Part shown: positions 9,357 to 46,192 of the stretch, piece by piece
Position numbering within the stretch: the stretch's first letter is position 1
Layout of the letters: every line of letters begins with the position of its first letter
Source: a virus
Length of the DNA stretch: 46,236 bases
Direction: 5' to 3' (one strand)
IMG/VR virus record: IMGVR_UViG_3300050821_011268
Span: 1-46,236 of that record
The notes under the pieces: model-generated
Told to the model about the DNA's origin: nothing
Seen by the model: only the letters and a program-made list of their open reading frames with translations
Database searches by the model: none
Made by a program: the position numbers and the translations under genes

Positions 9357-9658
9357 CACATCACTTTAGGCACTCTAGTACCTCCCCAACTCCACAGTTC
9401 CTTAGTTCCGGTCTTCCCCTGTAAGCTCATCACACAATGATTTCTCTGGCCCGCTGTAATGTATAGGAGAAAGTTCACTAAGTTGTTCGCCCAAGTAATA
9501 ATGAGCCAATGGAAGAAATTGAAAGTGTTTCTGGCCAAATACGCGCGCCCAATGCGTTCTGAGATGGTGTCGTCGGGCTCACCACCGAGAATAGTGCTGA
9601 CGAAAGCGTCAATGGCAAAGAGCATGTTGTAGCAATATTGTAAGATTATGCTTATCAT
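9356..9658 (-). CDS. Hypothetical membrane protein
   Basis: 100-aa ORF. The motif ILGGEPDDTISERIG resembles a recurrent phage membrane-protein motif. Two or three hydrophobic segments. Confidence 0.5.
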   Translation of the reverse strand: MISIILQYCYNMLFAIDAFVSTILGGEPDDTISERIGRAYLARNTFNFFHWLIITWANNLVNFLLYITAGQRNHCVMSLQGKTGTKELWSWGGTRVPKVM

Positions 9659-9855
9659 TTTCGTCTCCTTCTCACTGCAAAAATCAAAGCGCTATTTTTA
9701 TACACTTCACTGCGTGGCACGAGAGCGGTTAAACCGAAATCTACATCAAGAATTTTAAGAGTTTGGTTTCTCGTAATGGGCGTTTCGATGGTGAGGACAA
9801 GTGGTTCTAGCCCCATCCGTTTAAGTATTCGATCCATCAATCTAAACCACAGCAT
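9655..9855 (-). CDS. Hypothetical protein
   Basis: 66-aa ORF with an ATGA overlap downstream. Confidence 0.45.
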   Translation of the reverse strand: MLWFRLMDRILKRMGLEPLVLTIETPITRNQTLKILDVDFGLTALVPRSEVYKNSALIFAVRRRRK

Positions 9856-19342: not shown

Positions 19343-21568
19343 TTGAAAATGGCTAAGACAAGAAAGACAACCATTAAGACGCCGAAATTGCCTTCAGTCA
19401 CCGAGAGCATGCCGGGCTTTCAATTCAAGAACGATGGTGCGGTCGTCACACCACAAATCGAAACCGCTGTTTGGAATGGGCTCATGGAAGCGGTCTTGGG
19501 TCCGATGCCTTCGGGCATTCCCTTCGCGGGCCACAGTCAACCACTCAATCAAACGAATACGCTTTGGATAAATAATCGTTGGTATCTAGCATCCAACTTT
19601 CGACAACTCCTTTCAGAATCCTATGTCGAGCATGGCGTGATCCAAACCGTTGTCGATGTGCCGGTAGACGATGCTTTCCGTGGCGGAATCGAAGTGCATT
19701 CAAAAGAACTAGATCCGCGTGACATCGAACTTCTGTGCGGAGAGATGGAGGAGAAAGGTGATCTTATCGTTATTGGGCAGACCTGCAAATGGAATCGCCT
19801 ATTCGGTGGAGCTGGAACTGTTCTTAACGTGGACCAAGATCCAATGGAGCCGCTCAATCTCGATACGATCACACGATTTGAGATGTACGCGGCTGACATG
19901 TGGGAGCTATTCTGGAATAAACAGAATACAGAAGAGTATTCGATTGCCATTGATCTCGCTGCAAATATGGAGCGAATCGAATATTTTCAATTCTATGGTC
20001 ATAAGCTCCACAAATCTAAAGTCCTCAAGCAGAAAGGGATTGAGATTCCGTCGCTCATTCGCCCGAGGGTTCGTGGATGGGGAGTTAGCGTTGTCGAAGT
20101 ACTCATTAATTCCATCAACCAATATCTCAAAGCCAACAATTTAATCTTTGAAGTGCTCGATGAATTTAAAGTCGATTATTACAAGATCAAAGGCTTAGCG
20201 AATGCAGTCCTCACACCGGCAGGTACGGCCAACATTCGTAAGCATCTATCTGTCATGAACCAGCAAAAGAATTACAACAATGCGGCCGTGATGGATTCCG
20301 AAGACGATTGGATGCAACGTCAGCTTTCTTTCGCGGGGATTGCCGAAACCATGCAAGGTATCCGCATGCACATGGCTTGTGATGTTCGCATGCCGCTCTC
20401 TAAGATCTTTGGAATTTCTGCCACGGGCTTTGGCTCGGGCCAAGACGATATCGAGAATTACAATGCGATGGTCGAGAGCCAAGTCCGTCAGAAGGCTAAA
20501 TTTGAAATACTGAAAGTGGTCAAGATCCGTTGCCAACTTCTCTTCGGTCATGTGCCGGATGATTTACGTGTGGGCTTCAAATCACTTCGCATCCTTGGTG
20601 CCGAACAAGAAGAGAATGTGAAGACCCAGAAATTTAATCGCGTACTTCAAGCGCGAACGGCTGGTGAAGTGACAGCGCTTGAATTCAGAAACGCTATAAA
20701 CCGGGACATGCTACTTCCCATTCAGCTTGAGACAGATGAAGCAGCACTTTCAGCCGCAGCGGACGAGAAAGAATTGGCCGCATCGGAGAACGCCAAGATC
20801 TCCGGCAAAAGCGGGATCTCTCAAGATGCGATGTCGTCTACCACACCAAAGGTGGCCAAGAACTCAGCCGACGACGATCCGTATCCGAATTTTGTCGGTC
20901 CTAAAATCGTAACTGTGGGCATCGTATGCGGCGATGAAATGTTGGCTTGTCTTCGCCGCGACAATAACAAATGGAATAATCCAGGCGGCCATATGGACCA
21001 TGGTGAATCCGTGAGAGCTGCGGCTGTAAGAGAAGTGTTTGAAGAGACGGGCATTGGGATAGTACCGCACCGTTTGGAGCGATTGAAACCCATTCAGCTC
21101 AAAAGTCATCGCGGCGGAAAAGATTTTTGCATCTACCCATTCATTGCCCGCATAAAAACCAAAATATTCCCTACCACTTTCAATGATCCCGATTGCGAAT
21201 TCTCCCGGTTTGCTTGGGTAAAAATTGACCCGGCCACTGAAGAGCTTAAAGCGGACAATCGCCATGCGGCCAAAGACCAAGTGGTGGAGCATTTATTGAA
21301 GTCGCTTAAGAATTCATATGTTTCGGATAAGGGTTACGACAAGGACAATAATCAAATTGATCAAGATGCATTCTTCGCGCGCATCCGAGAAGAGGGGACC
21401 GGCGCTCAAGATCCCAAAGACCAAAGCAAGAATGCTGTTCAGAATCCGGGGAAGGTGGATGAAGCCAAATGGGAGCGGGCCAAGAAAAAGGTCAAAGAAG
21501 AATACGGCGAGATCAGATGGCCGGTCGTCACCTATGTCTATAAGAAAATGGGCGGAACATTTCAATGA
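19343..21568 (+). CDS. Portal protein (DUF1073-like) fused to a C-terminal Nudix hydrolase domain
   Basis: 741-aa ORF directly after terL. The N-terminal ~470 aa are portal-like. The Nudix box GGHMDHGESVRAAAVREVFEETGI lies at nt 20984-21055. Confidence 0.85.
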   Translation: MKMAKTRKTTIKTPKLPSVTESMPGFQFKNDGAVVTPQIETAVWNGLMEAVLGPMPSGIPFAGHSQPLNQTNTLWINNRWYLASNFRQLLSESYVEHGVIQTVVDVPVDDAFRGGIEVHSKELDPRDIELLCGEMEEKGDLIVIGQTCKWNRLFGGAGTVLNVDQDPMEPLNLDTITRFEMYAADMWELFWNKQNTEEYSIAIDLAANMERIEYFQFYGHKLHKSKVLKQKGIEIPSLIRPRVRGWGVSVVEVLINSINQYLKANNLIFEVLDEFKVDYYKIKGLANAVLTPAGTANIRKHLSVMNQQKNYNNAAVMDSEDDWMQRQLSFAGIAETMQGIRMHMACDVRMPLSKIFGISATGFGSGQDDIENYNAMVESQVRQKAKFEILKVVKIRCQLLFGHVPDDLRVGFKSLRILGAEQEENVKTQKFNRVLQARTAGEVTALEFRNAINRDMLLPIQLETDEAALSAAADEKELAASENAKISGKSGISQDAMSSTTPKVAKNSADDDPYPNFVGPKIVTVGIVCGDEMLACLRRDNNKWNNPGGHMDHGESVRAAAVREVFEETGIGIVPHRLERLKPIQLKSHRGGKDFCIYPFIARIKTKIFPTTFNDPDCEFSRFAWVKIDPATEELKADNRHAAKDQVVEHLLKSLKNSYVSDKGYDKDNNQIDQDAFFARIREEGTGAQDPKDQSKNAVQNPGKVDEAKWERAKKKVKEEYGEIRWPVVTYVYKKMGGTFQ

Positions 21569-24398: not shown

Positions 24399-25169
24399 AT
24401 GGCAGTAACAGCAGGTGCATTAAGTAAGGTAAGCGTTCAGGCGACTTCTGACGTCTTGTCGAGCGCTGTCGCAACTGGCGGCACTGGCCCTTATACATAT
24501 CAATGGTATCAAAGCACGGTTTCCGGTTTCGCTCCTGGTCCTAGTAATTTAGTTGCGGGCGCGACTTCGGTTGCACCAAGCAACCAAATGTTCACTGGTC
24601 TTCAACCGGGCACGACTTATTACTACATTGTCGTAGCGACCGACACCGGTGCTGGAAACGCGACTTCCAATTCCGCACAACTTGCAGTGGTTACGGCACC
24701 CGCGCAATCGCCTAACCAAGTAACCCAGTCACCTGTCGCGGGCATGCCCGATCAGAAGTACAGCTATAATACCAAAGCCGCATTGATTGACGTTTCCGAA
24801 GTGAATCAAAGCATCGCGGGCAGTGCCGTTAAGATCGTGAGCACTTCCAAAGGTGTCATGAAAGTGGTCAAGTGTACCGCTGATACCGATCAAGTGTTGG
24901 GCTTCATCGTGTACGATGTGAAATCGCAATTCTTCACCATCGGAGACCGCTGTGAGATTGCCCAAGGGGGCGATGTTCTTTATCTCATCTCGGTGGGTGC
25001 GATCAGCGCGGGTCAGCAAGTGCAACTCGATCTCACCTATGAAGGTGGTGTGAAAGCAATCAGTGGCGGGTCGGGTGCGAATTTGGTTGGATGGGCTATG
25101 GATTCGGCATCCGGCGATGGTCAATTGATCCGAATCAATATCGCAGCACCGCAGTATTCGTTTGCCTAA
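24399..25169 (+). CDS. Head decoration protein: N-terminal Ig/FN3-like domain plus DUF2190-like C-terminal domain
   Basis: GGTGPYTYQWYQS ... TTYYYIVVATD (Ig/FN3-like). The C-terminal half has LGFIVYDV ... GDRCEIAQGGDV ... ISAGQQV. Strong SD AAGGAG. Confidence 0.6.
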   Translation: MAVTAGALSKVSVQATSDVLSSAVATGGTGPYTYQWYQSTVSGFAPGPSNLVAGATSVAPSNQMFTGLQPGTTYYYIVVATDTGAGNATSNSAQLAVVTAPAQSPNQVTQSPVAGMPDQKYSYNTKAALIDVSEVNQSIAGSAVKIVSTSKGVMKVVKCTADTDQVLGFIVYDVKSQFFTIGDRCEIAQGGDVLYLISVGAISAGQQVQLDLTYEGGVKAISGGSGANLVGWAMDSASGDGQLIRINIAAPQYSFA

Positions 25170-25201
25170 TCTGTGACTTTTTAAATAAAAGGAGTTTACC
25201 C

Positions 25202-26254
25202 GTGGAATATGAAGTACGAAATGCAAAAGGTGAGCTGATAAAGCTCACTCCTCGTGAGGCCCTAATCGCGAACTACTGGCAGCGTCACATCAAGAACGCT
25301 CTCGGTTATGATATTCAAATCACCACTTTGACGACCATTGTGAAAAAGGTCTCAGAGCAAAAGTTTTACGAAATCCCACCCGCTGACTACATGCCAATCG
25401 TTGTCGGAAATGGTGCCTGGTCTGATCAACTGACCACTTATCGTTCGTACAATATGGCGGACAGTTTCGAGACAGGTATCATCAACACGGGCACCAACAA
25501 CGCTCGTATGGCGAATGCTGATGCTGGTGTTGATTCGCTGACCATCAAAGTGTTCAACTGGGCGAAAGCCGTTGGTTGGAGCATCTTTGATTTGGAATTG
25601 GCCGCGAAGTCTGGAAATTGGGATCTGATCGCCGCCAAAGAAGAGTCCAGGAAGAAAAACTGGGATCTCGGAATTCAGCGGATCGCATTCCTCGGTGCTT
25701 CGGGCGTCAACAGCTCCTCGGGTTCATGCCTTGGTCTCTTGAATCAACCGACCGTTACCCGCGATACTCTTACAATCACGCAAGCAATCAGTTCGTATAC
25801 ATTCACGCAATTGAATGCATTCGTGCAAAAAGTGGTTGAAGCGTACCGTGCGAACGCACAGCGTACGGTCTACCCGACCCATTTCATTATCCCAGAATCG
25901 GATTACAACGGATTGAATGTCTTTTCGAATCCGGAATTTCCTCTCAAAACTTCCATGGAAGTGCTTGAGACCATGTTCAAGACCGCTTGCAAAAACCCGA
26001 ATTTCAAAATCTTGCCGAACATTTATGGTCAGGTTTCGTATGCGGGTGCGGGCATCTTGCCGAGCCAATTCGCGACGCAAATGTATGTGCTCTTGAACTA
26101 CGACGAGAAGTCGGTTCGGATGGACGTGCCGGTTCCGTATACCAACACCTTGGCCAACACTCTGGATGGCTTTAATTTCCAGAACGCGGCTTACGGTCAG
26201 TTCACTGGTGTACTCGCCTATCGTCCGCTCGAAATGTACTACATGGGCTTTTAG
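25202..26254 (+). CDS. Major capsid protein (DUF2184-type, HK97-fold inferred)
   Basis: GTG 25202 lies 7 nt after AAGGAG. 350 aa. Its position after scaffold and decoration genes is typical of DUF2184 pairing with DUF2213. The track start 25091 overlaps the decoration gene. Confidence 0.8.
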   Translation: MEYEVRNAKGELIKLTPREALIANYWQRHIKNALGYDIQITTLTTIVKKVSEQKFYEIPPADYMPIVVGNGAWSDQLTTYRSYNMADSFETGIINTGTNNARMANADAGVDSLTIKVFNWAKAVGWSIFDLELAAKSGNWDLIAAKEESRKKNWDLGIQRIAFLGASGVNSSSGSCLGLLNQPTVTRDTLTITQAISSYTFTQLNAFVQKVVEAYRANAQRTVYPTHFIIPESDYNGLNVFSNPEFPLKTSMEVLETMFKTACKNPNFKILPNIYGQVSYAGAGILPSQFATQMYVLLNYDEKSVRMDVPVPYTNTLANTLDGFNFQNAAYGQFTGVLAYRPLEMYYMGF

Positions 26255-26326: not shown

Positions 26327-26758
26327 TTGTTCGCGTTTCCAGTGGTCGCCGATTTTAAAGCATATTTCGTTAGGGATTTTCCCTACGGCACCGATGTGAA
26401 CGCGAACGTTCTCGATCAAGACATTGCGAACGCCCAAACAGAGGCGCAAGTGTCGATCAACCAAGCATTATTTCCTGATCAAAACACTTTTAATTTAGGT
26501 TTCAATTTGTTCACCGCGCACACGCTCGTGGTGAATCTCAGAGCGTCCTCACAGGGAATTTCTGGCCAATTCGCGTGGCTTCAAAGCGGGCATTCAGTGG
26601 GGAACGTTTCTGAAGCCTTCGCGATTCCTGAACGCGTTCAAGCGAGTCCCATGTACGCGTATCTCACCAAAACAAATTATGGTGCGAAATATTTAAATCT
26701 GATTTTTCCAAATCTCATTGGTGTGGTATCAACCGCCCATGGGAGGACCAATGCTTAA
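26327..26758 (+). CDS. DUF4054-like head-tail connector protein
   Basis: FKAYFVRDFPYG ... FTAHTLV ... VGNVSEAF ... LTKTNYGAKYL. TTG start after GGAGGAGGG. Confidence 0.6.
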   Translation: MFAFPVVADFKAYFVRDFPYGTDVNANVLDQDIANAQTEAQVSINQALFPDQNTFNLGFNLFTAHTLVVNLRASSQGISGQFAWLQSGHSVGNVSEAFAIPERVQASPMYAYLTKTNYGAKYLNLIFPNLIGVVSTAHGRTNA

Positions 26759-27269
26759 TATGAAAGGTTTAGACGATCTTCTCAAGGCCATAAAGAGCCC
26801 ACCAATTGTCCGCGTGGGAATTCTCGGTGGTAAAAATCAGCGTTCCGAAAAGCAACATGCGCATGGGCCGCAAAAGACATTGTCCATGGGCTCACAGTAT
26901 GCACTTCCCACCATTGGGCCATCGAATGCCGAGATCGGGCTTAAGCACGAGTATGGCTCGGCGAAAGAAGGCTTACCAATCCGGTCATTCTTGAAAGAAC
27001 CAATTACGGACAATCTCCAGAAATATCTAGATGTTGCTGGCGCATTCTCACCCGGCGCGGTCAAACGGATCATTCAAGCCCGTTCCCTTTCGCTCTTTAT
27101 GAAAAAAGTCGGAATAATCGCTGAGACGATTGTTCAAGACGCTTTCCAAACGGGCGGCTTCGGGAAATGGAAACCCTCGAATATGAAATACAAAAAAGTT
27201 CAACAGACTTTGGTGGAAACGCAACAGCTGCGAAATTCTATCACGTCAGATGTTAAGGAGACCGCCTAA
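26751..27269 (+). CDS. Head-tail joining protein (HK97 gp10-like)
   Basis: ATG 26751 after GGAGG. NAEIGLKHEYGS ... LPIRSFLKEP resembles the gp10-family motif. Confidence 0.5.
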   Translation: MLNMKGLDDLLKAIKSPPIVRVGILGGKNQRSEKQHAHGPQKTLSMGSQYALPTIGPSNAEIGLKHEYGSAKEGLPIRSFLKEPITDNLQKYLDVAGAFSPGAVKRIIQARSLSLFMKKVGIIAETIVQDAFQTGGFGKWKPSNMKYKKVQQTLVETQQLRNSITSDVKETA

Positions 27270-27628
27270 TGAGATTCATAATTTTTCTTTTTGTTTTTAT
27301 ATGTTCGCAAGCTTTTGCGACAGTCACCTTGAATCAAGGTCCAAATAACGTATCAAGTCGAGTGGTGTACAGCTCCACTCCGGTTACGACTGCAACACCT
27401 TTGACATTGTTTACTTCCTCTAGATCAGGTACTCGCGTCACAATTTTTGATTCTAGCGGTCAGACCATGCAGCTTATTGTCACTTCAGGTGGCGGCCAAG
27501 TTGACGTGTTGATAATAAATCCCGGTGGTGGAGACTTCAGTCTCACTATCCCTCAGAATGCTGTCGTGAAGCTACAAGCACTCTCGGCCACCGCAACAGC
27601 CGGTGAAAGCGATATAAATTTCTACTAA
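27269..27628 (+). CDS. Small beta-rich protein with an N-terminal signal-peptide-like segment
   Basis: MRFIIFLFVFICSQAFA-TV has a basic n-region, a hydrophobic core and an AxA-like site. TAATG overlap upstream. Confidence 0.55.
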   Translation: MRFIIFLFVFICSQAFATVTLNQGPNNVSSRVVYSSTPVTTATPLTLFTSSRSGTRVTIFDSSGQTMQLIVTSGGGQVDVLIINPGGGDFSLTIPQNAVVKLQALSATATAGESDINFY

Positions 27629-27638
27629 GGAGAGCAAT

Positions 27639-28268
27639 GTGAAAGCACTGATTTTATTATTTTTGACATTGCCTCTTCTGGTCTTTGCAGGCCCTCCAAC
27701 TTCTGTTACGTGGGGTGTTGATGGTAGTGGACATCCTTGCAATTTTAGTTTGGTGTCTAATACTTGCATTTCTTCTGGTGGCGGATCAGTGACAAGCGTC
27801 GGATTAGCCGATGGCTCATCTATTCCCATTTACAGCATCAGTAATAGTCCGGTCACTTCTTCGGGGAATTTGACATTTAGCCTTTTGAGCCAGATCCAAG
27901 GAACCGTACTCGCAGGGCCGACTAGTGGCGCTTCAGCACAACCGACATTTCGTAGACTTATTTCGAGTGACTTACCACCACCACCAAATGCGCATGTAGC
28001 CGTTTTCACCACGGGCACCTATACTTTTGTCACCGGTACCGATCAATATGTGTTCTCGAATTCCAATGGTGCGACTTCTGTCACACTACCTGACATCTCA
28101 TCGATTGATGGAGTAGTGGCCTATTTCAAAAATCTAAATACGGGGGTCATGACGATAAATCCGTTTAGCGGAGTACAGTTTATCGACAATAATTCAGCAT
28201 TCGCGTTGAATGCACAATACCAGTCTATTCAGATAGTTTCACAAGGAGGAAATTGGTGGGTCTTCTAA
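27639..28268 (+). CDS. Fibre-like protein with an N-terminal signal-peptide-like segment
   Basis: GTG start after AAGGAGAG, then KALILLFLTLPLLVFA-GP. The motif SNSPVTSSGNLTFSL ... VLAGPTSGASAQPTFRRLISSDLP is common in phage tail fibres. Confidence 0.6.
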   Translation: MKALILLFLTLPLLVFAGPPTSVTWGVDGSGHPCNFSLVSNTCISSGGGSVTSVGLADGSSIPIYSISNSPVTSSGNLTFSLLSQIQGTVLAGPTSGASAQPTFRRLISSDLPPPPNAHVAVFTTGTYTFVTGTDQYVFSNSNGATSVTLPDISSIDGVVAYFKNLNTGVMTINPFSGVQFIDNNSAFALNAQYQSIQIVSQGGNWWVF

Positions 28269-29686
28269 AATATTTTTTACTGCTGACGTCGGTTTTCGCG
28301 ATTACCGCGAATGCCGCTTATTTTCCAACCACTACTGCGGTTCAATCCATCCCTGCGAATCTTAAACTTCAGGCATGGGCTTTTGATGGCGCAGGCAATG
28401 CAATTACGAGTTCCGGTGGTGCCCTAAGTTGCTCATCGGCGCAATCGGGTTCGTGGTCTATTGGAATCAACAATTTCCCAGCCACCCAACCGATCAGCGC
28501 TGTATCTTTGCCCTTACCCAGTGGGGCTGCAACCTCAGCGGGGCTTACCACGATCAATACCACTTTGGGTTCACCTATGCAGAACAGTGGGGGAAGTGTC
28601 CAGGCAAATGCTGGCACTAACCTAAACACTTCCGCTTTGGCGCTTGAATCCGGTGGGCATTTAGCTTCACTTGATTCTCATTTGCCTGCACAAGGCCAAG
28701 CGCTCGCAGCAGCGTCTCTTCCTGTAGTATTAACAGCAGCTCAGATAACTACTCTCACTCCGCTTTCGTCCATTAGCGTTTCAAATTTTCCGGCTACTCA
28801 ACCGATCAGCGCCGCATCTTTACCACTTCCTAGTGGTGCGGCAACGAGCGCATTGCAATCGACGATCAATACCACGTTAGGTTCTCCCATGCAAAATAGC
28901 GGGGGAAGTGTTACTGCAAATGCAGGTACGAATTTAAACACTTCACTTTTAGCTCTTGATACTTCCGTGAATGGACTTTTGCTCGCGCAAGGCTCGGCCA
29001 CCTCAACTCAAAAAGGAACGTTGATGATGGGTGCCGTCACTACGGCAGCACCAAGTTATACGACCGCCCAAACGAGTCCTTTTTCTCTTACGCTCGCAGG
29101 CAATGTGAGGGTTGACGGGTCCAGTGTTACTCAACCGATCAGCGCCGCATCTTTGCCACTTCCCACTGGTGCGGCCACTTCGGCCAACCAAACCAATGGT
29201 TCTGAAAAAGCACAAATTGTTGATGGATCGGGAAATGTCGTAGGTCCTGTCACAATTCTCAGCGCGGTTAATTACATGCCCGTTGTTATGGCGTCTACCG
29301 CTACACCTGGTTCCGCAGCTGTAGCCCGGTCTATGCAAGTAGCGGGGTCAGATGGGACGAATGCCCAAACTCTTAAGACAGATACTTCGGGACGGATTAT
29401 AAACACGCCGCAAAATACGTATCATCATCTGACAGGTGCCGCGACTACGACCATCAAATCCGGTGCAGGTTATTTGCACAATTTTTGCTATAACACTCAA
29501 GGTGTGGCGACAGTCGCCACCATTTATGACAACACTGCGGGAAGCGGAACGGTGATCGCCATTATAACAGCTGGTGCCGGTGCTTCTTCCCAAGTTTTTT
29601 GTCAACAGTTCGATGTAGCCTTTGCAACAGGTTTGACCATTACAACTACTGTCGCCGGAACTGACGCGACTGTTTCTTACCAATAG
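28253..29686 (+). CDS. Repeat-containing virion-module protein with an N-terminal signal-peptide-like segment
   Basis: LLKYFLLLTSVFAITANA-AY. Three copies of TQPISA(A/V)SLPLP(S/T)GAATS. The start is TTG 28253 or GTG 28256 (5 nt after GGAGGA). Confidence 0.6.
   Translation: MVGLLKYFLLLTSVFAITANAAYFPTTTAVQSIPANLKLQAWAFDGAGNAITSSGGALSCSSAQSGSWSIGINNFPATQPISAVSLPLPSGAATSAGLTTINTTLGSPMQNSGGSVQANAGTNLNTSALALESGGHLASLDSHLPAQGQALAAASLPVVLTAAQITTLTPLSSISVSNFPATQPISAASLPLPSGAATSALQSTINTTLGSPMQNSGGSVTANAGTNLNTSLLALDTSVNGLLLAQGSATSTQKGTLMMGAVTTAAPSYTTAQTSPFSLTLAGNVRVDGSSVTQPISAASLPLPTGAATSANQTNGSEKAQIVDGSGNVVGPVTILSAVNYMPVVMASTATPGSAAVARSMQVAGSDGTNAQTLKTDTSGRIINTPQNTYHHLTGAATTTIKSGAGYLHNFCYNTQGVATVATIYDNTAGSGTVIAIITAGAGASSQVFCQQFDVAFATGLTITTTVAGTDATVSYQ
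28472..29191 (+). repeat. Intragenic repeats: two 60-aa units 312 nt apart plus a third partial unit
   Basis: Units start at 28472 and 28784 (NFPATQPISA.SLPLPSGAATSA...TINTTLGSPMQNSGGSV.ANAGTNLNTS). A partial unit lies at 29126-29191. Confidence 0.85.
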
Positions 29687-29696
29687 GAGAAAGAAT

Positions 29697-29960
29697 ATGA
29701 AAATCAATAATATAACAGCAGCAGATATCACAATTCCAGGTTTAGTTTCAGTGGTTCCAGCGAGTGGGGTTTACTCAGTTGATCCGGATAATGATGATCT
29801 TGACCAGATGTCTAAAAGTGAATTGTTTCGTGCTCTCATAAACATGGGTTCATTGACCCTTCTTTTGGGTGATATTTATACCCCGTCTACTCCCACAGCT
29901 ATGGAAGAATATCTGGATAAAATCGCAAATGGTATATTTTCCCCAATGGCGGAGTCGTAA
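29697..29960 (+). CDS. Hypothetical protein
   Basis: 87-aa ORF with SD AGGAGAAAG. Confidence 0.5.
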   Translation: MKINNITAADITIPGLVSVVPASGVYSVDPDNDDLDQMSKSELFRALINMGSLTLLLGDIYTPSTPTAMEEYLDKIANGIFSPMAES

Positions 29961-29963
29961 AAT

Positions 29964-30410
29964 ATGGCTATTAAACATTATAGATCTACAGGAACCACGA
30001 CCATACTAAATGGGAAATGCACTCTATCGGTCACCATTCCCGGAACGTTTTCCAATCTTACTCCGGGAAGTCCGGCATGGTCGGGGCGAATTATAAAAAG
30101 CCTCGAATGCATGTTCGGCAATGGAGTGACTGGTGATTATGTAACCAATGTGATCGTCAGTGACCCTAATGGCGTCATACCATTGGGTGAACAAGCTTTG
30201 TTTCCGAATTATCCGATTGTGGGCACTCGCATGGACACGGCATTGCCATCAGGGAATCAAGGATTGAATCTGATTCCGGGAGTGGCGCAACAACTAGTTG
30301 AACAGCCTGTTCCCATTGCTAGTGGATTGGTTTTGTCTGCTGATTTCTATAACGCAAGTGCAAGAAGTGATACGCTGGCCCTCAATATTTATTGGGATGA
30401 TCTGACCTAA
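29964..30410 (+). CDS. Hypothetical beta-rich protein
   Basis: 148-aa ORF with a TAATG overlap downstream. Confidence 0.5.
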   Translation: MAIKHYRSTGTTTILNGKCTLSVTIPGTFSNLTPGSPAWSGRIIKSLECMFGNGVTGDYVTNVIVSDPNGVIPLGEQALFPNYPIVGTRMDTALPSGNQGLNLIPGVAQQLVEQPVPIASGLVLSADFYNASARSDTLALNIYWDDLT

Positions 30411-38161: not shown

Positions 38162-38571
38162 TTGTCAGAGCTTTAGACGCAAATGGTGATTGGCTTTTTG
38201 GTAAAGGCACCAATGATTATAAAGCGGGCACCGATGCCATTAAACAGACTATCGGTACTCGTCTTAATTCGTTTCTTGGGGATTGTTTTTTCGCCGGAGA
38301 GCAAGGTCTTGACTGGTTTAATTATCTGGCCGGTAAAGATCAAGTGTCTCCAGCTTTGGCCGTGGCTTCGACAATTGCCACCACACCAAGTGTTACGGGA
38401 CTCGATAGTTTTAGTCCAAGTCTAGACACTACGAGAACGGCTAGCTATGTTGCGGCCACAACACTGGGTCCGGTGTCAGGTCAATTCAGCATCACACAAG
38501 TAACTGATTTCTTACTCACTGAAAGCAGCGATTTCTTAACGGATGAAGACGGAGGACGGTTAGAAGCATGA
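38158..38571 (+). CDS. Baseplate wedge protein W (gp25 / DUF2634-like)
   Basis: DANGDWLFGKGTNDYKAGTDAIKQTIGTRLNSFLGDCFF resembles gp25/W-like proteins. GTG start in a GTGA overlap. Confidence 0.55.
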   Translation: MIVRALDANGDWLFGKGTNDYKAGTDAIKQTIGTRLNSFLGDCFFAGEQGLDWFNYLAGKDQVSPALAVASTIATTPSVTGLDSFSPSLDTTRTASYVAATTLGPVSGQFSITQVTDFLLTESSDFLTDEDGGRLEA

Positions 38572-41500
38572 AAAAATTAACGCTGTTCATTTTGGCAATC
38601 ACCTCTCTCATCTGCATGGGAGATGTAAAACTCTCCCAACTTCCCGTGGGAGCCGCTGCGGCCACTAACGGGCCGGATTCTTTTCCGTATGTTGACTCGG
38701 TGGACATGATCACGAAGAGAATTTTGCTCTCGGATATTCAAAACATTCCCTCTCTTCAAAGTGCATTCTTGTCACTCGCGCCCACATCTGCGAACTATGT
38801 AATGGCAGGCCCTTTAAGCGGTTCGCCGTCTGTTCCCTCTTTTAGGCTTCTGTCTGGTGCAGATTTGAATGTGGCGCTTACACAAATCGGTGTGAGCCCT
38901 CTCATAAACAATAACCTGCCACTTCAATGGAAAGATAGTGGGGGTACTGCGAGATCTATCTTAAATTTCGACAACACCAATTTGGTCACTCTTCAAAATC
39001 CTTTGGCCGGGTCCAATGCGCAATTATCGCTCACAAACGCTTCGGGCAATGGATATGCACAATTAAATGGCTCAAGTCAGATTACCCTTACCTCAAACGA
39101 AGTGCTCTTCCAAGGCTCGACCGCACCCACATCTTTGGTGTTTCCCGGTTCTTTTGGTACGGTCACTCTTGGTGCTCCCAATTCTTCGATCACCACTTGG
39201 GCCGCATATTGGCCCGTCTCCAATGGGACTTCGGGACAAGTACTCACGACCGATGGCGCCACCCCGGCCAATTGGTATTGGTCGAATTCAAGCACCACTC
39301 CACCTGCTGGCGTGACAGGTGACGTCCAGTTCAATAATGCTGGTGCATTTGGCGCAGATGATTCCAATTTCTTTTGGGACGAAACAGACAAGCGTTTAGG
39401 AATTGGAACGAATGGCCCTCTCACCAATATCCATTCGGCCAGTTCCGGAGCCTCAACAACAGATCACGGGATCACCCAAGAAAATAATTCCGCCAATGCC
39501 ATTGGCGGGGGATTTATCTTGAAAAAATCCAGAGGTACTTTTTCATCTCCTGGAGCCATTTTAGCGAATGACGCCCTTGGAAGAGTTCTTTTCTATGGGT
39601 ATGGTACTGGATATAATGCGACTACTCCAGATGCGGCGATGTTTGCCGCCGCTGCACAGAACTTTTCAGGCACGGCACATGGAACTAATCTTACCTTCAG
39701 CATCACCCCGAACAATTCCATAGTCCGGCAAAGTATTCTTGGCCTAAACAACGATGGTGGAATGGTTCGTTATAGCCCTACGGCTACAACGCAACTCTCT
39801 GAGTACTACACGGCCGGTGGAACTTCTTATTCTATAAATTGGCCTGCATCTCAAGGCACAGGTGCTTTAACCAATGACGGCGCCGGGAATTTGTCGTGGA
39901 TGTCTTCCGCTGCTGCGGGTGCGACTGGTGCGGTCCAATTCAACAATGCGGGCACTTTTGCAGGGGATACCTCCAATTTCTTTTGGGATGATTCCGGATT
40001 CAGACTCGGTATCGGCACCAATGCTGTGACTAGTCCCATTACTATTCAGACGAATTCTTTCCCCAAAGTGATCTCGGCCGGGAATAGTTCCGCCGCAGCT
40101 TATTTGGAGTTTGATTCGACCAATGGCGTTCAGTACGTGGCCGGAGCCGATGGCCCGAATAATCAAGGTTGGGCAGGCACCCAAAGCAACCATCCGTTCA
40201 TTTTCAGAACGAACAACACCGGCCGAATTACCGTGTCTTCGGGTGGGAACATTCAGTTCAACAATTACGGAGAAGGCGTCGCTCAGTTTGATTCAAGCGG
40301 AAATATAACTTCGACCGCACCCGGCACTTCGGGGAATGTCCTCACATCAAACGGCACCACTTGGATAAGCCAAACGCCAACAACGGGAATCACGGCACTC
40401 ACTGGTGACGTTACAGCTTCGGGATCAGGTTCAGTGGCCGCTAGTGTTGTTAAGATTCAAGGTACGCCCGTATCGGCGACCGCGCCCACGACAAGTCAAG
40501 TACTGGCCTATAATGGAACCGCTTGGGCACCGGCAACGGCCAGTTCGGGCACTCCAGGCGGCACCACTGGTGCCATCCAATACAACAATGGCGGAGCCTT
40601 CGCGGGTGATGCCTCTAATCTATTCTGGGACGATGCGGGTGTGAGACTTGGCATTGGGACAAATTCGATCACGAGCCCCGTCACTATCGTGACCGCATCT
40701 TACCCCAAAGTGATCTCGGCTACCAATACCACAGCGGCCACTTATCTAGAATTTGATTCCACAAATGGTGTGCAATTCGTTGCCATGGCGGATGGCCCTA
40801 ATAATCAAGGGTTGATGGGTACGCAAAGCAATCACCAATTTGTGTTTAGAACGAATAACACCGGCCGAATTACGGTCGCGGCTGGTGGGAACATTCAGTT
40901 CAACAATTACGGAGAAGGCGTCGCTCAGTTTGATTCAAGCGGAAATATAACTTCGACCGCACCCGGAACCTCGGGCAATGTACTCACTTCGAGTGGTGGG
41001 GTTTGGGTGAGTGCTCCGGCATCCGGGGGTTCGGGTACGGTCACTCAAGTAAACACGGGCACGGGTATCACGGGTGGCCCTATCACCACTACCGGAACAA
41101 TTTCTCTGGCGGCCATAAATAACAATGATCTTTTGGCCAACACTTCGGGGAGTTCAGCAGCACCCGTTGACACTTCTCTTACTGCGCTTATCGATAGCGC
41201 TATGGGGAATTCACAAGGCGACATTCTTTATCGCGGAGCCAGCACTTGGACGGTTTTATCCCCCGGTACAAGCGGTTTTCTTTTACAGACCCAAGGAACC
41301 GGCGCTAATCCGATTTGGGCGAATGGATCGAGCACCTATGCAACTACTTCTTTAAACAACGTAGCGGCCACTTCGATTGGTGCGAATTTGAATCCGGCGA
41401 CCACCAACACTTATCAAATCGGTAGCAGTAGCTCACAATGGCTCGCAGTTTCGGCATTCAGATATACCACCACGAATAGTCCGGATTCACTATTGATGGG

Positions 41501-42884
41501 AGTACTCACAAGTGTGATCCCCGGAGTGACGGGCGTTGGTATCGCTCAAAATGGTTTACAAGGATTTCCTACGCTCACGCAAGATCCGCTTTATGTGACT
41601 ACCGTTTCTGATTCTACTTCTAATACTGTGGCAACGGCAGATATCGACATCGTGACGGGAAATAAAACTGTAGGCACCGCAAATAGTGGAAGTATCAATA
41701 TCACTGCGGGGACAGCGACAGGAACCCAAGGTTCAATTCGGCTACTCAAAAGTGGTGTACCTTCCGTGTCAGGCCAAGTATGGACGGCATCGGGAACAGA
41801 TGGGACAGGATATTGGCAAACTCCTTCTAGCGGAACCGTCGCTTTGAACAGCATAACGGCCGCAACCGCTACCAACACCATAAACAATCTCAATTTTGCT
41901 CAAGAATGGGATTGGAACACAATCACAACGGCCAATGCGATGAAATTCGCATCTTCCACGATCACGAGTGGTTCTCTTCTTAATCTATCGGCTTCCAGCG
42001 CCTCAAACGTTGGCCCGATCTTGGAAGTGACCAACACTTCGACAACAAGCAATTCCACGGACATCAATGTGGATGCATCGGGATCAAGTGGGACCGGCGT
42101 CAATGTGAGCGCTGTCACATCGGGCAATAGCACAGTGGGTTTCCATTCTCAAAACTCTGCAACAGGGGGAGCAACAGGACTTCAGATTGACAACACCGGC
42201 GCCACTGGTGCGGGTAAAGGCATCGTTGTAAATTTATCATCTAATAACGCAAATGCCGTAGGGCTAAACATTACTTATTCAGGCGCGACGAGTCCTGCTG
42301 ATGGAATTCAAGTAAACCAAAATGCAGGGTATGGACTCGACATTAAAAACCACACCGCAAATGCCGTCGCTCAATCCATTTTTCTCACCAATAACGACAC
42401 TAGTGCTGCGGTTGGAAATGGCGCGGAGATGGTTTTTGGAACGAGTAACGGCAGCCCCAATAAATTGATCGCAGGTGTCGCGGGCGTAGATGAAGACAAC
42501 ACGGCCACCTATGGTGGGGCCGTAGTTCTTTACACCACCAATGGCGGCGGACCTACACCCATCGAACATTTGCGGTTAGATCGTTGGGGACATCTCATCA
42601 GTAAGGGTACACTCCCGACCATAAGTGCTTGTGGAACATCTCCGTCTATAGCGGGCACCGATGTCAATGGTCGAGCGACCGTTGGCACTGGGGGAACGGC
42701 AACGAGTTGCACGGTCACCTTTGCGAATGCCTACACTAATGCTCCGACATGTTCTGGTGGGGACGAAGACTCTACGACTCCGCTTTTGACAGTTTTATCC
42801 GCGACGACCACTGCTCTGACTTTCACCGCTTCAACTCCTTTTGCGGCAGGTGATAAACTCGTCTACCATTGTTTAGGATACTAG
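38568..42884 (+). CDS. Giant tail fibre (1438 aa) with a signal-peptide-like N-terminus and duplicated modules
   Basis: MKKLTLFILAITSLICMG. Fibre motifs include LSGSPSVPSFRLLSGADL, three copies of VQFNN.G.F.GD..NFFWD....LGIGTN, and GTVTQVNTGTGITGGPITTTGTISL. Confidence 0.8.
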   Translation: MKKLTLFILAITSLICMGDVKLSQLPVGAAAATNGPDSFPYVDSVDMITKRILLSDIQNIPSLQSAFLSLAPTSANYVMAGPLSGSPSVPSFRLLSGADLNVALTQIGVSPLINNNLPLQWKDSGGTARSILNFDNTNLVTLQNPLAGSNAQLSLTNASGNGYAQLNGSSQITLTSNEVLFQGSTAPTSLVFPGSFGTVTLGAPNSSITTWAAYWPVSNGTSGQVLTTDGATPANWYWSNSSTTPPAGVTGDVQFNNAGAFGADDSNFFWDETDKRLGIGTNGPLTNIHSASSGASTTDHGITQENNSANAIGGGFILKKSRGTFSSPGAILANDALGRVLFYGYGTGYNATTPDAAMFAAAAQNFSGTAHGTNLTFSITPNNSIVRQSILGLNNDGGMVRYSPTATTQLSEYYTAGGTSYSINWPASQGTGALTNDGAGNLSWMSSAAAGATGAVQFNNAGTFAGDTSNFFWDDSGFRLGIGTNAVTSPITIQTNSFPKVISAGNSSAAAYLEFDSTNGVQYVAGADGPNNQGWAGTQSNHPFIFRTNNTGRITVSSGGNIQFNNYGEGVAQFDSSGNITSTAPGTSGNVLTSNGTTWISQTPTTGITALTGDVTASGSGSVAASVVKIQGTPVSATAPTTSQVLAYNGTAWAPATASSGTPGGTTGAIQYNNGGAFAGDASNLFWDDAGVRLGIGTNSITSPVTIVTASYPKVISATNTTAATYLEFDSTNGVQFVAMADGPNNQGLMGTQSNHQFVFRTNNTGRITVAAGGNIQFNNYGEGVAQFDSSGNITSTAPGTSGNVLTSSGGVWVSAPASGGSGTVTQVNTGTGITGGPITTTGTISLAAINNNDLLANTSGSSAAPVDTSLTALIDSAMGNSQGDILYRGASTWTVLSPGTSGFLLQTQGTGANPIWANGSSTYATTSLNNVAATSIGANLNPATTNTYQIGSSSSQWLAVSAFRYTTTNSPDSLLMGVLTSVIPGVTGVGIAQNGLQGFPTLTQDPLYVTTVSDSTSNTVATADIDIVTGNKTVGTANSGSINITAGTATGTQGSIRLLKSGVPSVSGQVWTASGTDGTGYWQTPSSGTVALNSITAATATNTINNLNFAQEWDWNTITTANAMKFASSTITSGSLLNLSASSASNVGPILEVTNTSTTSNSTDINVDASGSSGTGVNVSAVTSGNSTVGFHSQNSATGGATGLQIDNTGATGAGKGIVVNLSSNNANAVGLNITYSGATSPADGIQVNQNAGYGLDIKNHTANAVAQSIFLTNNDTSAAVGNGAEMVFGTSNGSPNKLIAGVAGVDEDNTATYGGAVVLYTTNGGGPTPIEHLRLDRWGHLISKGTLPTISACGTSPSIAGTDVNGRATVGTGGTATSCTVTFANAYTNAPTCSGGDEDSTTPLLTVLSATTTALTFTASTPFAAGDKLVYHCLGY
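39918..40989 (+). repeat. Two ~430-nt homologous modules spaced exactly 642 nt apart, with an 83-nt identical core
   Basis: Modules at 39918-40347 and 40560-40989. Nt 40242-40324 are identical to 40884-40966. A more diverged third copy starts at 39309. Confidence 0.9.
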
Positions 42885-42894
42885 GGGGGATTTC

Positions 42895-44298
42895 GTGCCG
42901 AATGTTTTAGACGCCACAGGATTGACACTCAAGACCAGCGCCGAGCTGATCGCGTACTTCACAAACGCATATCAGACCATTTATGGGGCAGATGTGAACC
43001 TTGATCAAGACAGTCCTGATGGTCAGATGATGATGATTTTTGTGCAAGCCGTGCTCGATCAACAAGACATCACCATGCAGATTTACAACTCATTTGACCC
43101 GGACAATACTTTTGGTGTGGTGCTCGATCAGCGCATTGCGATCAATGGTATTCAAAGAAAAGGCGGCACTTTTACAGTGACTCCTGAAACCATCGTTGTG
43201 GACCGGGCTCTTTCCCTCATCGGGATTAATGATGATCCGAACAATCCCTACACCGTCCAAGACAGTGCGGGAACTATGTGGCAACTTCAGACTACACAGA
43301 ATTTCGCATCGGCCGGAACTTACATTGCAAGTTTTCAAGCGGCTCTCCCTGGTGCGGTGTTGAGTTTACCCAACACCATCACCATTCCGATTACTCAAGT
43401 CCTTGGTGTAGATTCGGTCAATAATCCCTCGAGTTATTCTGTTCTGGGAATTAATGAGGAGACCGATCCCACAGTCAAAATAAGACGGCAACAATCGACG
43501 GCTTTGGGTTCGCAAGGATTTTTAAGCGGACTTTATGCGGCGTTAAACAATATCAATGGAGTGAGTTTTGCGAAAGTCTATGAGAATGACACTGGAGTCA
43601 CGGATGGGGATGGAGTTCCAAGCCATTCTATTTGGGTTATTATCGCTGGTTCTGCCGCCGCTGTTGATATTGCTAATGCGATCTATTTAAAGCGCAATGC
43701 CGGATGCGGGATGTTTGGGGCTCAATCTTATCTCATCACCCAAGCGGACGGAAGTTTATTCGCGATTCTTTGGGATTTCGTCACACCCGATACGCTCTAT
43801 ATAAAATTCACGGCCACGTCCATTGACGGCATAAACGCGCCCAATTTAGCGGCCATTAGGTCTGGGCTTGTCACAAGTTTCGTGCCTGGAGTGTACCAGA
43901 CGGTGAACATCAGTGCTTTAGCTGCGGCAGTTCAGGCCATTGATTCAAATACCCTAGTCACAAATGCTGGCTTTTCGACTTCGGCCACGGGACCGTTTAC
44001 CACCACTCTCACGCCTTCGGCCAAGAATTTGCAATTTATTGTGACGTCACCAAACATCATAATAATTCCGATCATTGAACTTCCGATAAATCCGACAGTG
44101 GCACATGGTGGAGCAATCCAATTCTCGGCCCTTGGCGGGTATGGTGCATACACCTTCACCTTGCAAGTTAACAACTCCGGTGGCACGTGCTCCACGTCGG
44201 GTGCTTATGTGGCGGGCGGAACTTTCCCGGTCACGGATACGGTGCGCGTAACGGATTCTCAAGGCAACTTCACTGATACGAATGTGAGTGTGACCTGA
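42895..44298 (+). CDS. Baseplate J-like protein with a C-terminal Ig-like domain
   Basis: GTG start after GGGGGGA. The N-terminal LKTSAELIAYFTNAYQTIYGADVNLDQDSPDGQ is Baseplate_J-like. The C-terminus has GGYGAYTFTLQVNN. Confidence 0.7.
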   Translation: MPNVLDATGLTLKTSAELIAYFTNAYQTIYGADVNLDQDSPDGQMMMIFVQAVLDQQDITMQIYNSFDPDNTFGVVLDQRIAINGIQRKGGTFTVTPETIVVDRALSLIGINDDPNNPYTVQDSAGTMWQLQTTQNFASAGTYIASFQAALPGAVLSLPNTITIPITQVLGVDSVNNPSSYSVLGINEETDPTVKIRRQQSTALGSQGFLSGLYAALNNINGVSFAKVYENDTGVTDGDGVPSHSIWVIIAGSAAAVDIANAIYLKRNAGCGMFGAQSYLITQADGSLFAILWDFVTPDTLYIKFTATSIDGINAPNLAAIRSGLVTSFVPGVYQTVNISALAAAVQAIDSNTLVTNAGFSTSATGPFTTTLTPSAKNLQFIVTSPNIIIIPIIELPINPTVAHGGAIQFSALGGYGAYTFTLQVNNSGGTCSTSGAYVAGGTFPVTDTVRVTDSQGNFTDTNVSVT

Positions 44299-44912
44299 TG
44301 ACGACTGAAGAAATCGCGGCTTATTATGCCAACTTATTGATTCTGCAATATAAAGGTAAACCGAATGCCTATGCCTTTGTTTTAGACACGGTTTTGCCGC
44401 TCATCATGGATCAAATGCCAACAACCATCCGCGATGCCTTCGACATGACATCAGCAGTCGGCGTGCAACTTGACGTCTTAGGCAAATACATTGGTGTGAC
44501 GAGATACGGGAACCGAACGAATGGCTCGACCATCACGCTCGACGATACGGACTATAGAAAACTGATCATGATGGTCCTGATCCGGAACAATAACGGAAGC
44601 AGTCTCGCCACTATCCAATCGCAACTCTCCGCAGTTTTTCCAGGGATGATTTTTGTCTCCGATACGACAACGATGTCACTAAATTATTTGCTGATTGAAA
44701 GTCTCGGCACACCCGATCTTTTGGAGATGCTCGTCACTGGAGATTTTTTACCGCGTCCCATGGGAGTCAATACGGCCGTGACCACTGAGCCGTCACATTC
44801 TTTTCCGTTCTTTGGATTCATCACCACTGTTTTCCCTGATCCGACTGTTTCGCCGTTCAACACAAATCAGATTTACAACCTAAATGCACCTTGGTTAGGT
44901 TATAACACTTAA
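44298..44912 (+). CDS. Baseplate wedge protein (DUF2612-like; Mu gp48 / P2 I position)
   Basis: EEIAAYYANLLILQYKGKPNA ... QLDVLGKYIGVTR is a DUF2612-like pattern. ATGA-type overlap with the J gene. Confidence 0.55.
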   Translation: MTTEEIAAYYANLLILQYKGKPNAYAFVLDTVLPLIMDQMPTTIRDAFDMTSAVGVQLDVLGKYIGVTRYGNRTNGSTITLDDTDYRKLIMMVLIRNNNGSSLATIQSQLSAVFPGMIFVSDTTTMSLNYLLIESLGTPDLLEMLVTGDFLPRPMGVNTAVTTEPSHSFPFFGFITTVFPDPTVSPFNTNQIYNLNAPWLGYNT

Positions 44913-45616: not shown

Positions 45617-46192
45617 ATGAAATACCTTTTGGGCTTTGCAGCATTTCTTCTCTGTTCTCTAGCCACGGCGAGCTTCTTTGTACCGCCTCACGGAATAACG
45701 CTTCCGATGCACCAGCCAGGCGAAGTGCTTATGTGGGGCGGCTCCAGTTGCCCTACCGGCACCCTCCCCATGAATGGTGGGGGTTATTCGACAAGTGCTC
45801 CCTATGCGGCTCTATACGCGATTCTGGGCTATACCTATGGTGGTAGTGGCGGCACCTTTAATGTGCCCAATACTGGTGGGGTGTTCATCAGGGGATCGGG
45901 TTCCCAGACCATTGGTCCGACCCTTTATTCGGGCACGCGCGGGACCGCTCAGAATGACCATTTTGCGAGCCACATTCATAACGTCTATGGCGGATCGGCC
46001 GGGAGCACTTACACGACCATTGGCAACGTCGCGGCCTATGGAATAGGCGGTTCATCCGGGGGTACCGGCTATCAATACTACACCACCGTTCCGGCAGGTC
46101 CAGGAACGAACGAGCCCTTCATCCAGGCGACAGGTGTTGGGACCGAGACACAGCCCGCAAACATCGTTATGCTTTATTGCATAGTGTACTGA
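45617..46192 (+). CDS. Phage tail-collar (MdpB-like) domain protein with a signal-peptide-like N-terminus; spans the circular junction
   Basis: MKYLLGFAAFLLCSLATA-SF. Collar pattern: MWGGSSCPTGTLPMNGG ... YAALYAILGYTYGG ... FNVPNTGGVFIRG ... HIH ... ETQPANIVMLYCI. ATG 45617 lies 8 nt after AGGAG. Confidence 0.75.
   Translation: MKYLLGFAAFLLCSLATASFFVPPHGITLPMHQPGEVLMWGGSSCPTGTLPMNGGGYSTSAPYAALYAILGYTYGGSGGTFNVPNTGGVFIRGSGSQTIGPTLYSGTRGTAQNDHFASHIHNVYGGSAGSTYTTIGNVAAYGIGGSSGGTGYQYYTTVPAGPGTNEPFIQATGVGTETQPANIVMLYCIVY

Follow-up and report, generated by a model that had tools for sequence, protein, structure and literature searches.

The window analysed here, the whole of a 46,236-bp viral contig from a JGI metagenome (IMG/VR record IMGVR_UViG_3300050821_011268), encodes a small myovirus with a contractile tail, and five open reading frames (ORFs) lie as a cassette between its head-completion and neck genes (27269-30410; genes A to E below). 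The first three products are fibre- or knob-like proteins that begin with predicted export signals. Taken together, our analyses favor the reading that A, B and C are horizontally acquired, late-expressed, Sec-exported accessory fibre/knob paralogues that act on the host envelope. We give this reading, taken whole, an even chance of being right, while two of its parts stand more firmly: judged from their sequences, A, B and C are very probably exported, and the cassette is, with comparably high probability, accessory. An earlier description made from the DNA alone (the sequence-only reading) had reported the five ORFs and quoted the N-termini of the first three products; the ORFs are present exactly as described, and the quoted N-termini are exact. 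The cassette and its borders are listed below, where GC3 is the G + C content at third codon positions.

27269..27628 (+): gene A, 119 amino acids (aa), ATG start; leader and single jellyroll knob.
27639..28268 (+): gene B, 209 aa, GTG start; leader, fibre unit and C-terminal domain.
28256..29686 (+): gene C, 476 aa from GTG 28256; leader, repeat shaft and jellyroll knob.
29697..29960 (+): gene D, 87 aa, acidic and leaderless, with GGAG upstream; lowest GC3 in the cassette (0.33).
29964..30410 (+): gene E, 148 aa, leaderless; member of an unannotated family of ~150-aa proteins.
26718..27269 (+): Neck1/tail-completion gene, the left border; PHROG 222 (E=1.3e-14), 40% identical to gp52 of Bdellovibrio phage phi1422.
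30410..30796 (+): neck/tail-completion gene, the right border; PHROG 939, 41% identical to phi1422 gp53, its ATG overlapping the stop codon of E.
26327..26758 (+): head-tail adaptor of the DUF4054/E217_gp27 type, a conserved flanking gene outside the cassette; Pfam PF13262 (E=8.5e-8), 48% identical to phi1422 gp51.

The leader of gene A spans 17 residues (27269-27319; MRFIIFLFVFICSQAFA/TV, the slash marking the predicted cleavage site, here AFA/TV), that of gene B also 17 residues (27639-27689; MKALILLFLTLPLLVFA/GP, site VFA/GP) and that of gene C 20 residues (28256-28315; MGLLKYFLLLTSVFAITANA/AY, site ANA/AY). The n-region and the h-region that follows it are MR and FIIFLFVFICSQAFA in A, MK and ALILLFLTLPLLVFA in B, and MGLLK and YFLLLTSVFAITANA in C. 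Each leader thus carries one K or R near the N-terminus and an uncharged stretch of at most 15 residues, with a strongly hydrophobic core, up to the cleavage site. The features of a Sec/signal peptidase I substrate, namely a charged n-region, an uncharged h-region of ~7-15 residues and small residues at positions -3 and -1, are therefore found in all three products, as the sequence-only reading had proposed when it pointed to a basic n-region, a hydrophobic core and a small-x-small site. Such N-termini should reach the Sec machinery, so that export is the default expectation for these proteins.

No lipobox ([LVI][ASTVI][GAS]C) was found at the end of the h-region in A, B or C; the only leader cysteine, in A (FIC/S), has isoleucine at -1. 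A lipoprotein, spanin or holin role for the three products was considered and rejected, as they are beta-rich fibre/knob proteins without a lipobox and the inferred lysis genes lie at 304-1603. Leaders were screened with a crude home-made filter applied to 50 window ORFs and 76 phi1422 proteins. Its hits among the window ORFs were A to C, another two fibre-like proteins and, as a marginal false positive, D; among the phi1422 proteins it flagged 3 of 76, a background rate of such N-termini of ~4%. Because this background rate is low, three adjacent leaders are not a matter of chance.

The start codons of the three genes are well supported, each having AAGGAG(G) 6-9 nt upstream. The ATG of gene A overlaps the Neck1 stop codon by one base (TAATG) and is preceded by AAGGAG; the GTG of gene B lies 6 nt behind AAGGAG; and for gene C, GTG 28256 (476 aa), with AAGGAGG 6 nt before it, is a likelier start than TTG 28253 (477 aa). 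No upstream extension is possible in A, B or C, apart from this one extra codon in C, and within the first 60 codons of these genes no downstream in-frame ATG, GTG or TTG has a Shine-Dalgarno-like sequence. The earlier statement that no downstream start would remove the hydrophobic segments thus holds, in that Shine-Dalgarno sequences are found only at the leader-including starts, and wrong start codons for A, B and C are ruled out by this placement. The listed TTG of Neck1 is probably too early, its homologues aligning from about residue 20.

Behind the leaders, the three products are built from modules of phage fibres. The mature part of gene A is a single ~100-aa jellyroll knob, 35-44% identical to the C-terminal domain of eight C-family fibres (P0078, P0087, P0093, P0102, P0104, P0112, P0121 and P0123), and AlphaFold2 modelled it as an 8-strand beta sandwich at a predicted local distance difference test (pLDDT) score of 71. 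In gene C, the leader and a short domain next to it precede ~2.5 copies of a ~104-aa repeat (SLPLPSGAATSA...ANAGTNLNTS), and the protein ends in a knob with Cys411 and Cys449. In the DNA, the repeat is seen at 28472-28647, at 28784-28959 and, incompletely, a third time at 29128. In the AlphaFold2 monomer model of C, residues 3-18 form a helix, the shaft has pLDDT below 50, and residues 385-476 form a jellyroll knob with pLDDT of ~90. According to these models, the knobs are jellyrolls like those of lectins and fibre tips. Foldseek returned only generic jellyroll matches for the knobs of A and C (Ena pilins, TNF/C1q-like lectins, a phage tail-needle knob and nucleoplasmin-like folds; template-modelling score (TM) 0.4-0.65); for A, the matches were the Ena pilins, TNF-like lectins and the tail-needle knob at TM 0.4-0.5. 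These fold searches gave no specific function for the knobs. A type A C-terminal sorting domain of the type IX secretion system was also tried for gene A and rejected, with TIGR04183 scoring 17.2 bits against a cut-off of 23 and none of eight homologues matching.

Gene B comprises the leader, a short segment with two cysteines, one fibre unit of ~70 aa (GSVTSVGL...PTFRRLISSDLP, also written GSVTSVGLADGS...AGPTSG..AQPTFRRL) and a C-terminal domain of ~85 aa resembling the ends of fibre proteins. The tail-fibre motif noticed earlier in this product, VLAGPTSGASAQPTFRRLISSDLP, lies within the ~70-aa unit, which is conserved in the 16 homologues aligned with B (64 homologues in all) and in which G93, P94, G97, A100, P102 and R105 are invariant across that alignment; the earlier remark on the motif was therefore well founded. 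Gene B falls in PHROG 9625 (E=2e-8), and its tblastn matches lie under features annotated as 'minor tail protein' (Achromobacter phage Motura) and 'T7 tail fiber protein | hypothetical protein' (Thermocrinis virus). Its 23-residue motif recurs in a 1438-aa protein of the window (see below), and no other tip is common to A, B or C and another window protein.

Comparison with homologues also supports export. The gene C family comprises more than 3,498 homologues, found in phage-sized contigs, IMG/VR contigs and metagenome-assembled genomes (MAGs) of many phyla; leader-like N-termini occur in 37 to 40 of the top 119 matches (34%), the rest having assorted hydrophilic N-termini. Twelve full-length members have hydrophobic leaders of 15-22 aa that differ in sequence, and in these same members plus one that is 5'-truncated, position -1 is always A or G and position -3 is A, V or S. 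Directly after the leader starts a mature N-terminus of the form D(T/S)PPP..V.AK with an invariant D-(T/S)-P, so that the border between variable and conserved sequence coincides with the predicted signal peptidase I site. In the B family, 8 of 64 homologues have a leader-like N-terminus and most are leaderless. In both families, the leader takes the place of an N-terminal stretch seen in leaderless relatives: the first ~17 residues of the latter (MSVSLTNNFLANARGL...) are replaced in B, and the MADN..TPGTGK-type N-terminus is missing from C. The replaced stretch presumably docks the fibre to the virion.

Leader-bearing members also differ in their mature regions. In tests that take no account of phylogeny, cysteines per 100 aa were 0.39 in leader-bearing versus 0.17 in leaderless members of the C family (Mann-Whitney p=5e-5), and 1.58 versus 0.34 in the B family (p=9e-4), and the counts in leader-bearing members were mostly even. 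Two cysteines of the C-type knob (C411 and C449 in gene C), which AlphaFold2 places in strands of this confidently modelled domain, form a pair that 7 of 8 leader-bearing proteins have and all 3 leaderless ones lack; neither cysteine is ever seen without the other. On the sequence comparison, this covarying pair fits a disulfide made in an oxidising compartment. Both forms can occur in one genome, as in phage L002, where a leaderless protein of 245 aa and a leader-bearing protein of 237 aa have a common knob (36% identity, E=2e-17). Apart from one unclassified MAG, the genomes in which the scan found leader-bearing variants all belong to taxa that are diderm by general knowledge. The core of the sequence-only reading, that fibre-like proteins here bear Sec-type export signals, is thus borne out by the leader border, the cysteine enrichment and a covarying pair confined to leader-bearing relatives.

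The two remaining genes of the cassette are less informative. Gene D has no Pfam, PHROG or NCBIfam match and no detectable relatives. Gene E belongs to a family of 88 representative clusters (exhaustive search, E<=1e-3) with the conserved pattern PGTF...SGR...GD...FPxYP...WDD, one member of which (P0193) carries a leader; E itself has no PHROG or PDB match and no relative in the other loci L001-L066.

The cassette interrupts a conserved gene order. A metagenome scan with a Neck1 profile yielded 37 relatives, 28 of which have both flanking genes in view, and in all 28 the Neck1 and gp53-like genes are adjacent (gap of at most 190 nt). In phi1422 (L001), gp52, the Neck1 homologue, ends where gp53 begins, and the same holds for viral contig L004; with these two included, direct adjacency holds for 30 of the 32 relatives in which both flanking genes are in view. 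A leader-bearing fibre cassette at this site was found only in the window and in L003, which carries there a leader-bearing C-family fibre of 685 aa as well as proteins of 366 aa (with the B-like leader MIRFLILFFTLQAFA/GP) and 152 aa. In L071 and L075, the site is occupied by an unrelated leaderless gene. In L076, a leader-bearing fibre-like gene of 887 aa (6115-9755 region) lies one gene further downstream, between the gp53-like and gp54-like neck genes, and is followed by small genes that resemble a holin and an endolysin by eye.

GC3 is 0.33-0.415 in A to E, compared with 0.49-0.575 in neighbouring genes. This low GC3 throughout, together with the adjacency of the flanking genes in most relatives, indicates that the cassette was acquired as a unit. 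Neighbouring genes at the cassette junctions either overlap slightly or are at most 10 nt apart, both outer borders being one-base TAATG overlaps, and promoter- or terminator-like sites within the cassette are not above shuffled expectation. With such tight junctions and no promoter or terminator of its own, the cassette now appears to be read within the late operon. No flanking repeats marking a mobile cassette were found above background, the only repeats being those internal to gene C. As most relatives have no gene at all at this site, A to E are not needed to build the particle. The earlier suggestion that the cassette may be a moron therefore stands in part: it is inserted between conserved genes and shifted in base composition, but it is fused into the late operon with no promoter or terminator of its own and is not a classical moron.

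Leader-bearing fibres are not confined to the cassette, and the phenomenon is wider in scope than the earlier reading of the first three products had noted, with two more fibre-like proteins in the window and many in other phages. The two in the window are as follows.

38568..42884 (+): fibre-like protein of 1438 aa, between baseplate genes that are adjacent in phi1422; leader-like MKKLTLFILAITSLICMG/DVKLSQLP if Met1 is the start.
45617..46192 (+): tail collar-domain protein of 191 aa (Pfam PF07484, E=2.3e-13) with a clean leader (MKYLLGFAAFLLCSLATA/SFF); AGGAG 8 nt before ATG 45617.

For the 1438-aa protein, Met1 has GGAGG 12 nt upstream and an ATGA overlap, and Met17 is without a Shine-Dalgarno sequence; from Met17, the protein would have a standard fibre N-terminus (MGDVKLSQLP) as in phi1422 gp67, so that the start is ambiguous. 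This protein is absent from phi1422, has four cysteines in its C-terminal tip and matches no Pfam, PHROG or PDB entry. The collar protein is the last gene of the tail-fibre region and of the contig, and its listed TTG start (45590) is probably wrong. In phi1422, the three filter-positive proteins are gp68 (40429-42273, 614 aa), which adjoins the tail fibre gp67, gp75 (44298-44810, 170 aa) at the end of the tail region, and gp01 (1-828). These three offer a culturable system for the study of export.

More generally, members of the B and C families lie in tail/fibre regions of phage contigs. A leader-bearing fibre follows the baseplate and fibre genes in L065, close to an endolysin; one lies directly after the endolysin in L002, with more leader-bearing proteins nearby, one of which ends in a K1-lyase_C domain; and one ends the tail module of L064, which was read as siphovirus-like from a 1071-aa protein. 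On two alphaproteobacterial chromosomes (L039, 6597-9620; L046, 7182-9431), leader-bearing C-family proteins are encoded directly downstream of tail genes like those of gene transfer agents (GTAs), the neighbours being GTA_TIM, a phiJL001 gp84-like hub and Phage-tail_3/Rcc01698_C. Leader-bearing fibres adjoin lysis genes in L002, L065 and L076. A pairing of the 375-aa and 478-aa proteins of L065 as paralogues was set aside, as the alignment was driven by composition (E=0.86). We found no description in the literature of signal peptides on phage fibre proteins, and the paper on the phiPLPE group that covers phi1422 makes no mention of them on fibre proteins (PMC3391216).

These observations can be assembled into a working model. 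In A, B and C, the usual N-terminal end of a fibre/knob module would have been swapped for a cleavable Sec signal peptide. The proteins would be made late, alongside the virion proteins, exported through SecYEG and cut by signal peptidase I after A17 in A, A17 in B and A20 in C. The mature proteins would then fold in an oxidising compartment of the envelope, where at least B and the knob of C would probably be disulfide-bonded. We infer the final location of the three products (periplasm or cell surface), their ligand and their biological role: the jellyroll knobs may bind envelope components of the producing cell and thereby occupy or mask glycan or receptor structures recognised by this or by competing phages. 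Masking of this kind could lead to superinfection exclusion, and progeny would not be lost on infected cells and debris. Among the three options that the sequence-only reading had offered, exported proteins that remodel or mask the host surface fit best. Receptor masking is the role we prefer, by analogy with T5 Llp, and at present we regard it as possible rather than probable.

Phage-encoded exported proteins have been known from other systems. Lambda lom and bor, HK97 gp15, T5 llp and cor encode exported envelope proteins from late or tail gene clusters, which have their site of action at the envelope rather than in the particle; in the case of Llp and Cor, the receptor used by the phage itself is blocked. 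The cassette is like these morons in its position between conserved structural genes, its absence from close relatives, its differing base composition and its export signals. It is unlike them in having neither a promoter or terminator of its own nor a lipobox, and in lying within the late operon of an apparently virulent phage; in addition, it encodes neither outer-membrane barrels nor small lipoproteins but fibre/knob modules paralogous to virion fibres. To our knowledge, the exported accessory proteins of phages described so far are small lipoproteins or outer-membrane proteins. Compared with ordinary tail and neck fibres (the leaderless relatives of B and C, and whiskers of the T4 wac type), the cassette products have common shaft repeats, knobs and gene neighbourhoods, but A, B and C have a leader in place of the N-terminal end, as well as extra cysteines. 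PblA and PblB of Streptococcus mitis phage SM1 are tail-fibre-like virion proteins that become surface adhesins after holin/lysin-mediated release, without a signal peptide; they resemble the cassette products in being phage fibre-like proteins, with surface adhesion established for PblA and PblB, while only the cassette products have a predicted signal peptide.

Several points weigh against this reading. The leader calls rest on a home-made filter, and the cysteine tests ignore phylogeny, with only 11 proteins in the knob comparison. Translational coupling to virion genes and the lack of a separate promoter are also what would be expected of genes for a structural component. Leader-bearing fibres also occur at expected tail-fibre positions (L065 and the GTA-like clusters), and a leaderless C-type fibre occupies a comparable position between modules in L066, judged from gene order and sizes only. 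Known exclusion proteins are usually made early or from prophages, and no integrase was found among the window ORFs scanned. Moreover, a Sec leader reaches only the periplasm of a diderm cell, and masking of surface receptors needs a further step. A route from the periplasm to the surface does exist in one diderm, as the mosaic adhesive trimer (MAT) fibres of Bdellovibrio bacteriovorus, which have signal peptides, reach the cell surface (PMC10769870).

These MAT fibres lead to an alternative that we consider unlikely, though it is the best of the rivals, namely that A, B and C are cell-surface adhesins, which on an infected cell or lysogen would alter adhesion to prey, neighbours or surfaces, for example by clumping with susceptible cells. 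MAT proteins consist of a signal peptide, a conserved, beta-rich N-domain of ~130 aa, a long shaft resembling phage tail fibres and an exchangeable tip, and are displayed on the surface (PMC10769870), and the layout of leader, domain directly after it, fibre shaft and variable knob is a parallel to them. The closest cultured relative of the window phage, phi1422, infects Bdellovibrio, and its tail-fibre region has the leader-bearing gp68 and gp75; the K1-lyase_C domain that ends the leader-bearing protein in L002 is typical of tailspikes. However, MAT proteins are encoded by chromosomal genes of a predator and the cassette by a phage, and Pfam finds no S74 domain in A to E. B, C and the 1438-aa protein match no solved MAT tip (phmmer and profile searches, a comparison that covers the solved tips); these three, like E, have no sequence match to any other PDB chain, and no MAT entries were among the top 50 Foldseek hits. 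In addition, phiPLPE-like phages have hosts in several proteobacterial genera (PMC3391216), leader-bearing variants extend well beyond Bdellovibrionota, and an apparently virulent phage that expresses these genes late gives its host little time to profit from them.

A second alternative, which we consider distinctly unlikely, is virion maturation outside the cytoplasm: A, B and C would be exported, cleaved and disulfide-folded in the periplasm and then picked up, after holin triggering or lysis, as neck or head fibres. This would account for the place of the genes at the head-tail junction, as an integral part of the late structural operon, for the comparable position of the leaderless C-family fibre in L066 (again from gene order and sizes), for leader-bearing fibres being sited like tail fibres in L065 and behind GTA-like tail genes, and for the leader-bearing fibres that adjoin lysis genes in the three loci named above. 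The 1438-aa protein, if started at Met1, retains a standard fibre N-terminal motif after its leader, and the conserved post-leader domain of leader-bearing members could dock. On the other hand, the known virion fibres of tailed phages fold and attach in the cytoplasm; we know of no precedent for extracytoplasmic fibre assembly in tailed phages, and none was found in the literature. Moreover, 30 of the 32 relatives with both flanks in view build virions with no gene at this site, gene A is a lone knob with neither shaft nor docking part, and B has its leader in place of, not in addition to, the extreme N-terminus of leaderless relatives.

It is less likely still, and in our view improbable, that the N-termini are uncleaved signal anchors that stay in the inner membrane, as parts of assembly intermediates or exclusion factors, or serve as plugs in the virion. 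The N-terminal helix modelled for C (residues 3-18) would suit an anchor, but an uncharged stretch of at most 15 residues falls short of the usual membrane span and has a length usual for signal peptides. In addition, leaders that otherwise diverge keep small residues at -1 and -3, at the border of the conserved mature domain, and without cleavage there would be no selection to keep them. The option of non-cleaved hydrophobic plugs, raised by the sequence-only reading, is accordingly a poor fit, with a core too short for an anchor, a conserved cleavage pattern and an N-terminal stretch that is replaced. Its option of membrane-tethered assembly intermediates is conceivable but improbable. Finally, an artefact, in the sense of miscalled starts or random hydrophobic N-termini on ordinary cytoplasmic virion proteins, can be dismissed as extremely improbable: the ambiguous start of the 1438-aa protein and the simple filter speak for it, but Shine-Dalgarno sequences occur only at leader-including starts, the background is ~4%, and the leaders recur in 34% of the C-family matches and correlate with cysteine.

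We therefore return to exported, accessory fibre/knob paralogues acting on the envelope. Their significance lies in the fact that whole fibre/knob modules here bear predicted cleavable export signals and are co-expressed with virion genes. Many uncultured phages show the pattern, as do tail clusters of a prophage- or GTA-like kind and, among cultured phages, phi1422. It may tentatively be proposed, as a possibility with somewhat less than an even chance, that exported virion-fibre paralogues are a widespread and previously undescribed phage strategy in diderm hosts, which either neutralises receptors from the producer's side or loads the fibres onto virions in the periplasm after holin triggering. 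If masking is true, it would be a new and common device for exclusion and progeny protection, the specificity of which should mirror that of the phage's own receptor-binding proteins, and this mirrored specificity would help to predict cross-resistance and host range. If virions instead pick up the exported fibres, the rule of cytoplasmic assembly of tailed phages would need revision. The exported fibres may, in addition, be linked in evolution to surface fibres of cells, for example the MAT adhesins of Bdellovibrio. In any case, the combined signatures of leader and cysteines provide a simple, testable rule to tell exported from virion-bound fibre homologues in metagenomes.

The remainder of the window is in keeping with a phage of this type. 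The right arm encodes terminase, portal, Mu F-like protein, capsid protein, DUF4054 adaptor, Neck1, DUF3383 sheath, tube, baseplate and fibres; immediately downstream of the cassette lie the homologues of phi1422 gp53 and gp54, followed by the DUF3383 sheath gene at 31546. The left arm encodes the phage's own DNA polymerase A, primase and SNF2 helicase. The structural module is colinear with that of phi1422 at 26-53% amino-acid identity, and by these sequence comparisons the window phage is classed as a phiPLPE/phi1422-like dwarf myovirus. No tRNA genes were found in the window, and the MAG contigs bearing C-like genes have no further gene in common with it.

A few minor observations were made on other genes of the window. 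The capsid ORF as listed (25091-26254, +) overlaps the preceding gene (24399-25169, +; 256 aa) by 79 nt, and as alignments with homologues begin only near residue 29-41, the true start of the capsid gene is probably a later codon. Within it, 35 nt (26177-26211) are 100% identical to phi1422, the sole megablast match to any cultured phage. Two probable lysis genes lie at 304-720 and 1205-1603 (+), one encoding a DUF5675 protein and the other a 132-aa protein with a hydrophobic stretch ending ...LLSRC, which may be an o-spanin or u-spanin and is homologous to a lipobox-bearing protein adjoining the L002 endolysin. The portal ORF (19343-21568, +; 741 aa) combines a Phage_portal_3 domain with a NUDIX hydrolase domain in its C-terminal part (residues 528-640). 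At just 478 aa, the portal of phi1422 is shorter, and the portal-NUDIX fusion of the window looks unusual.

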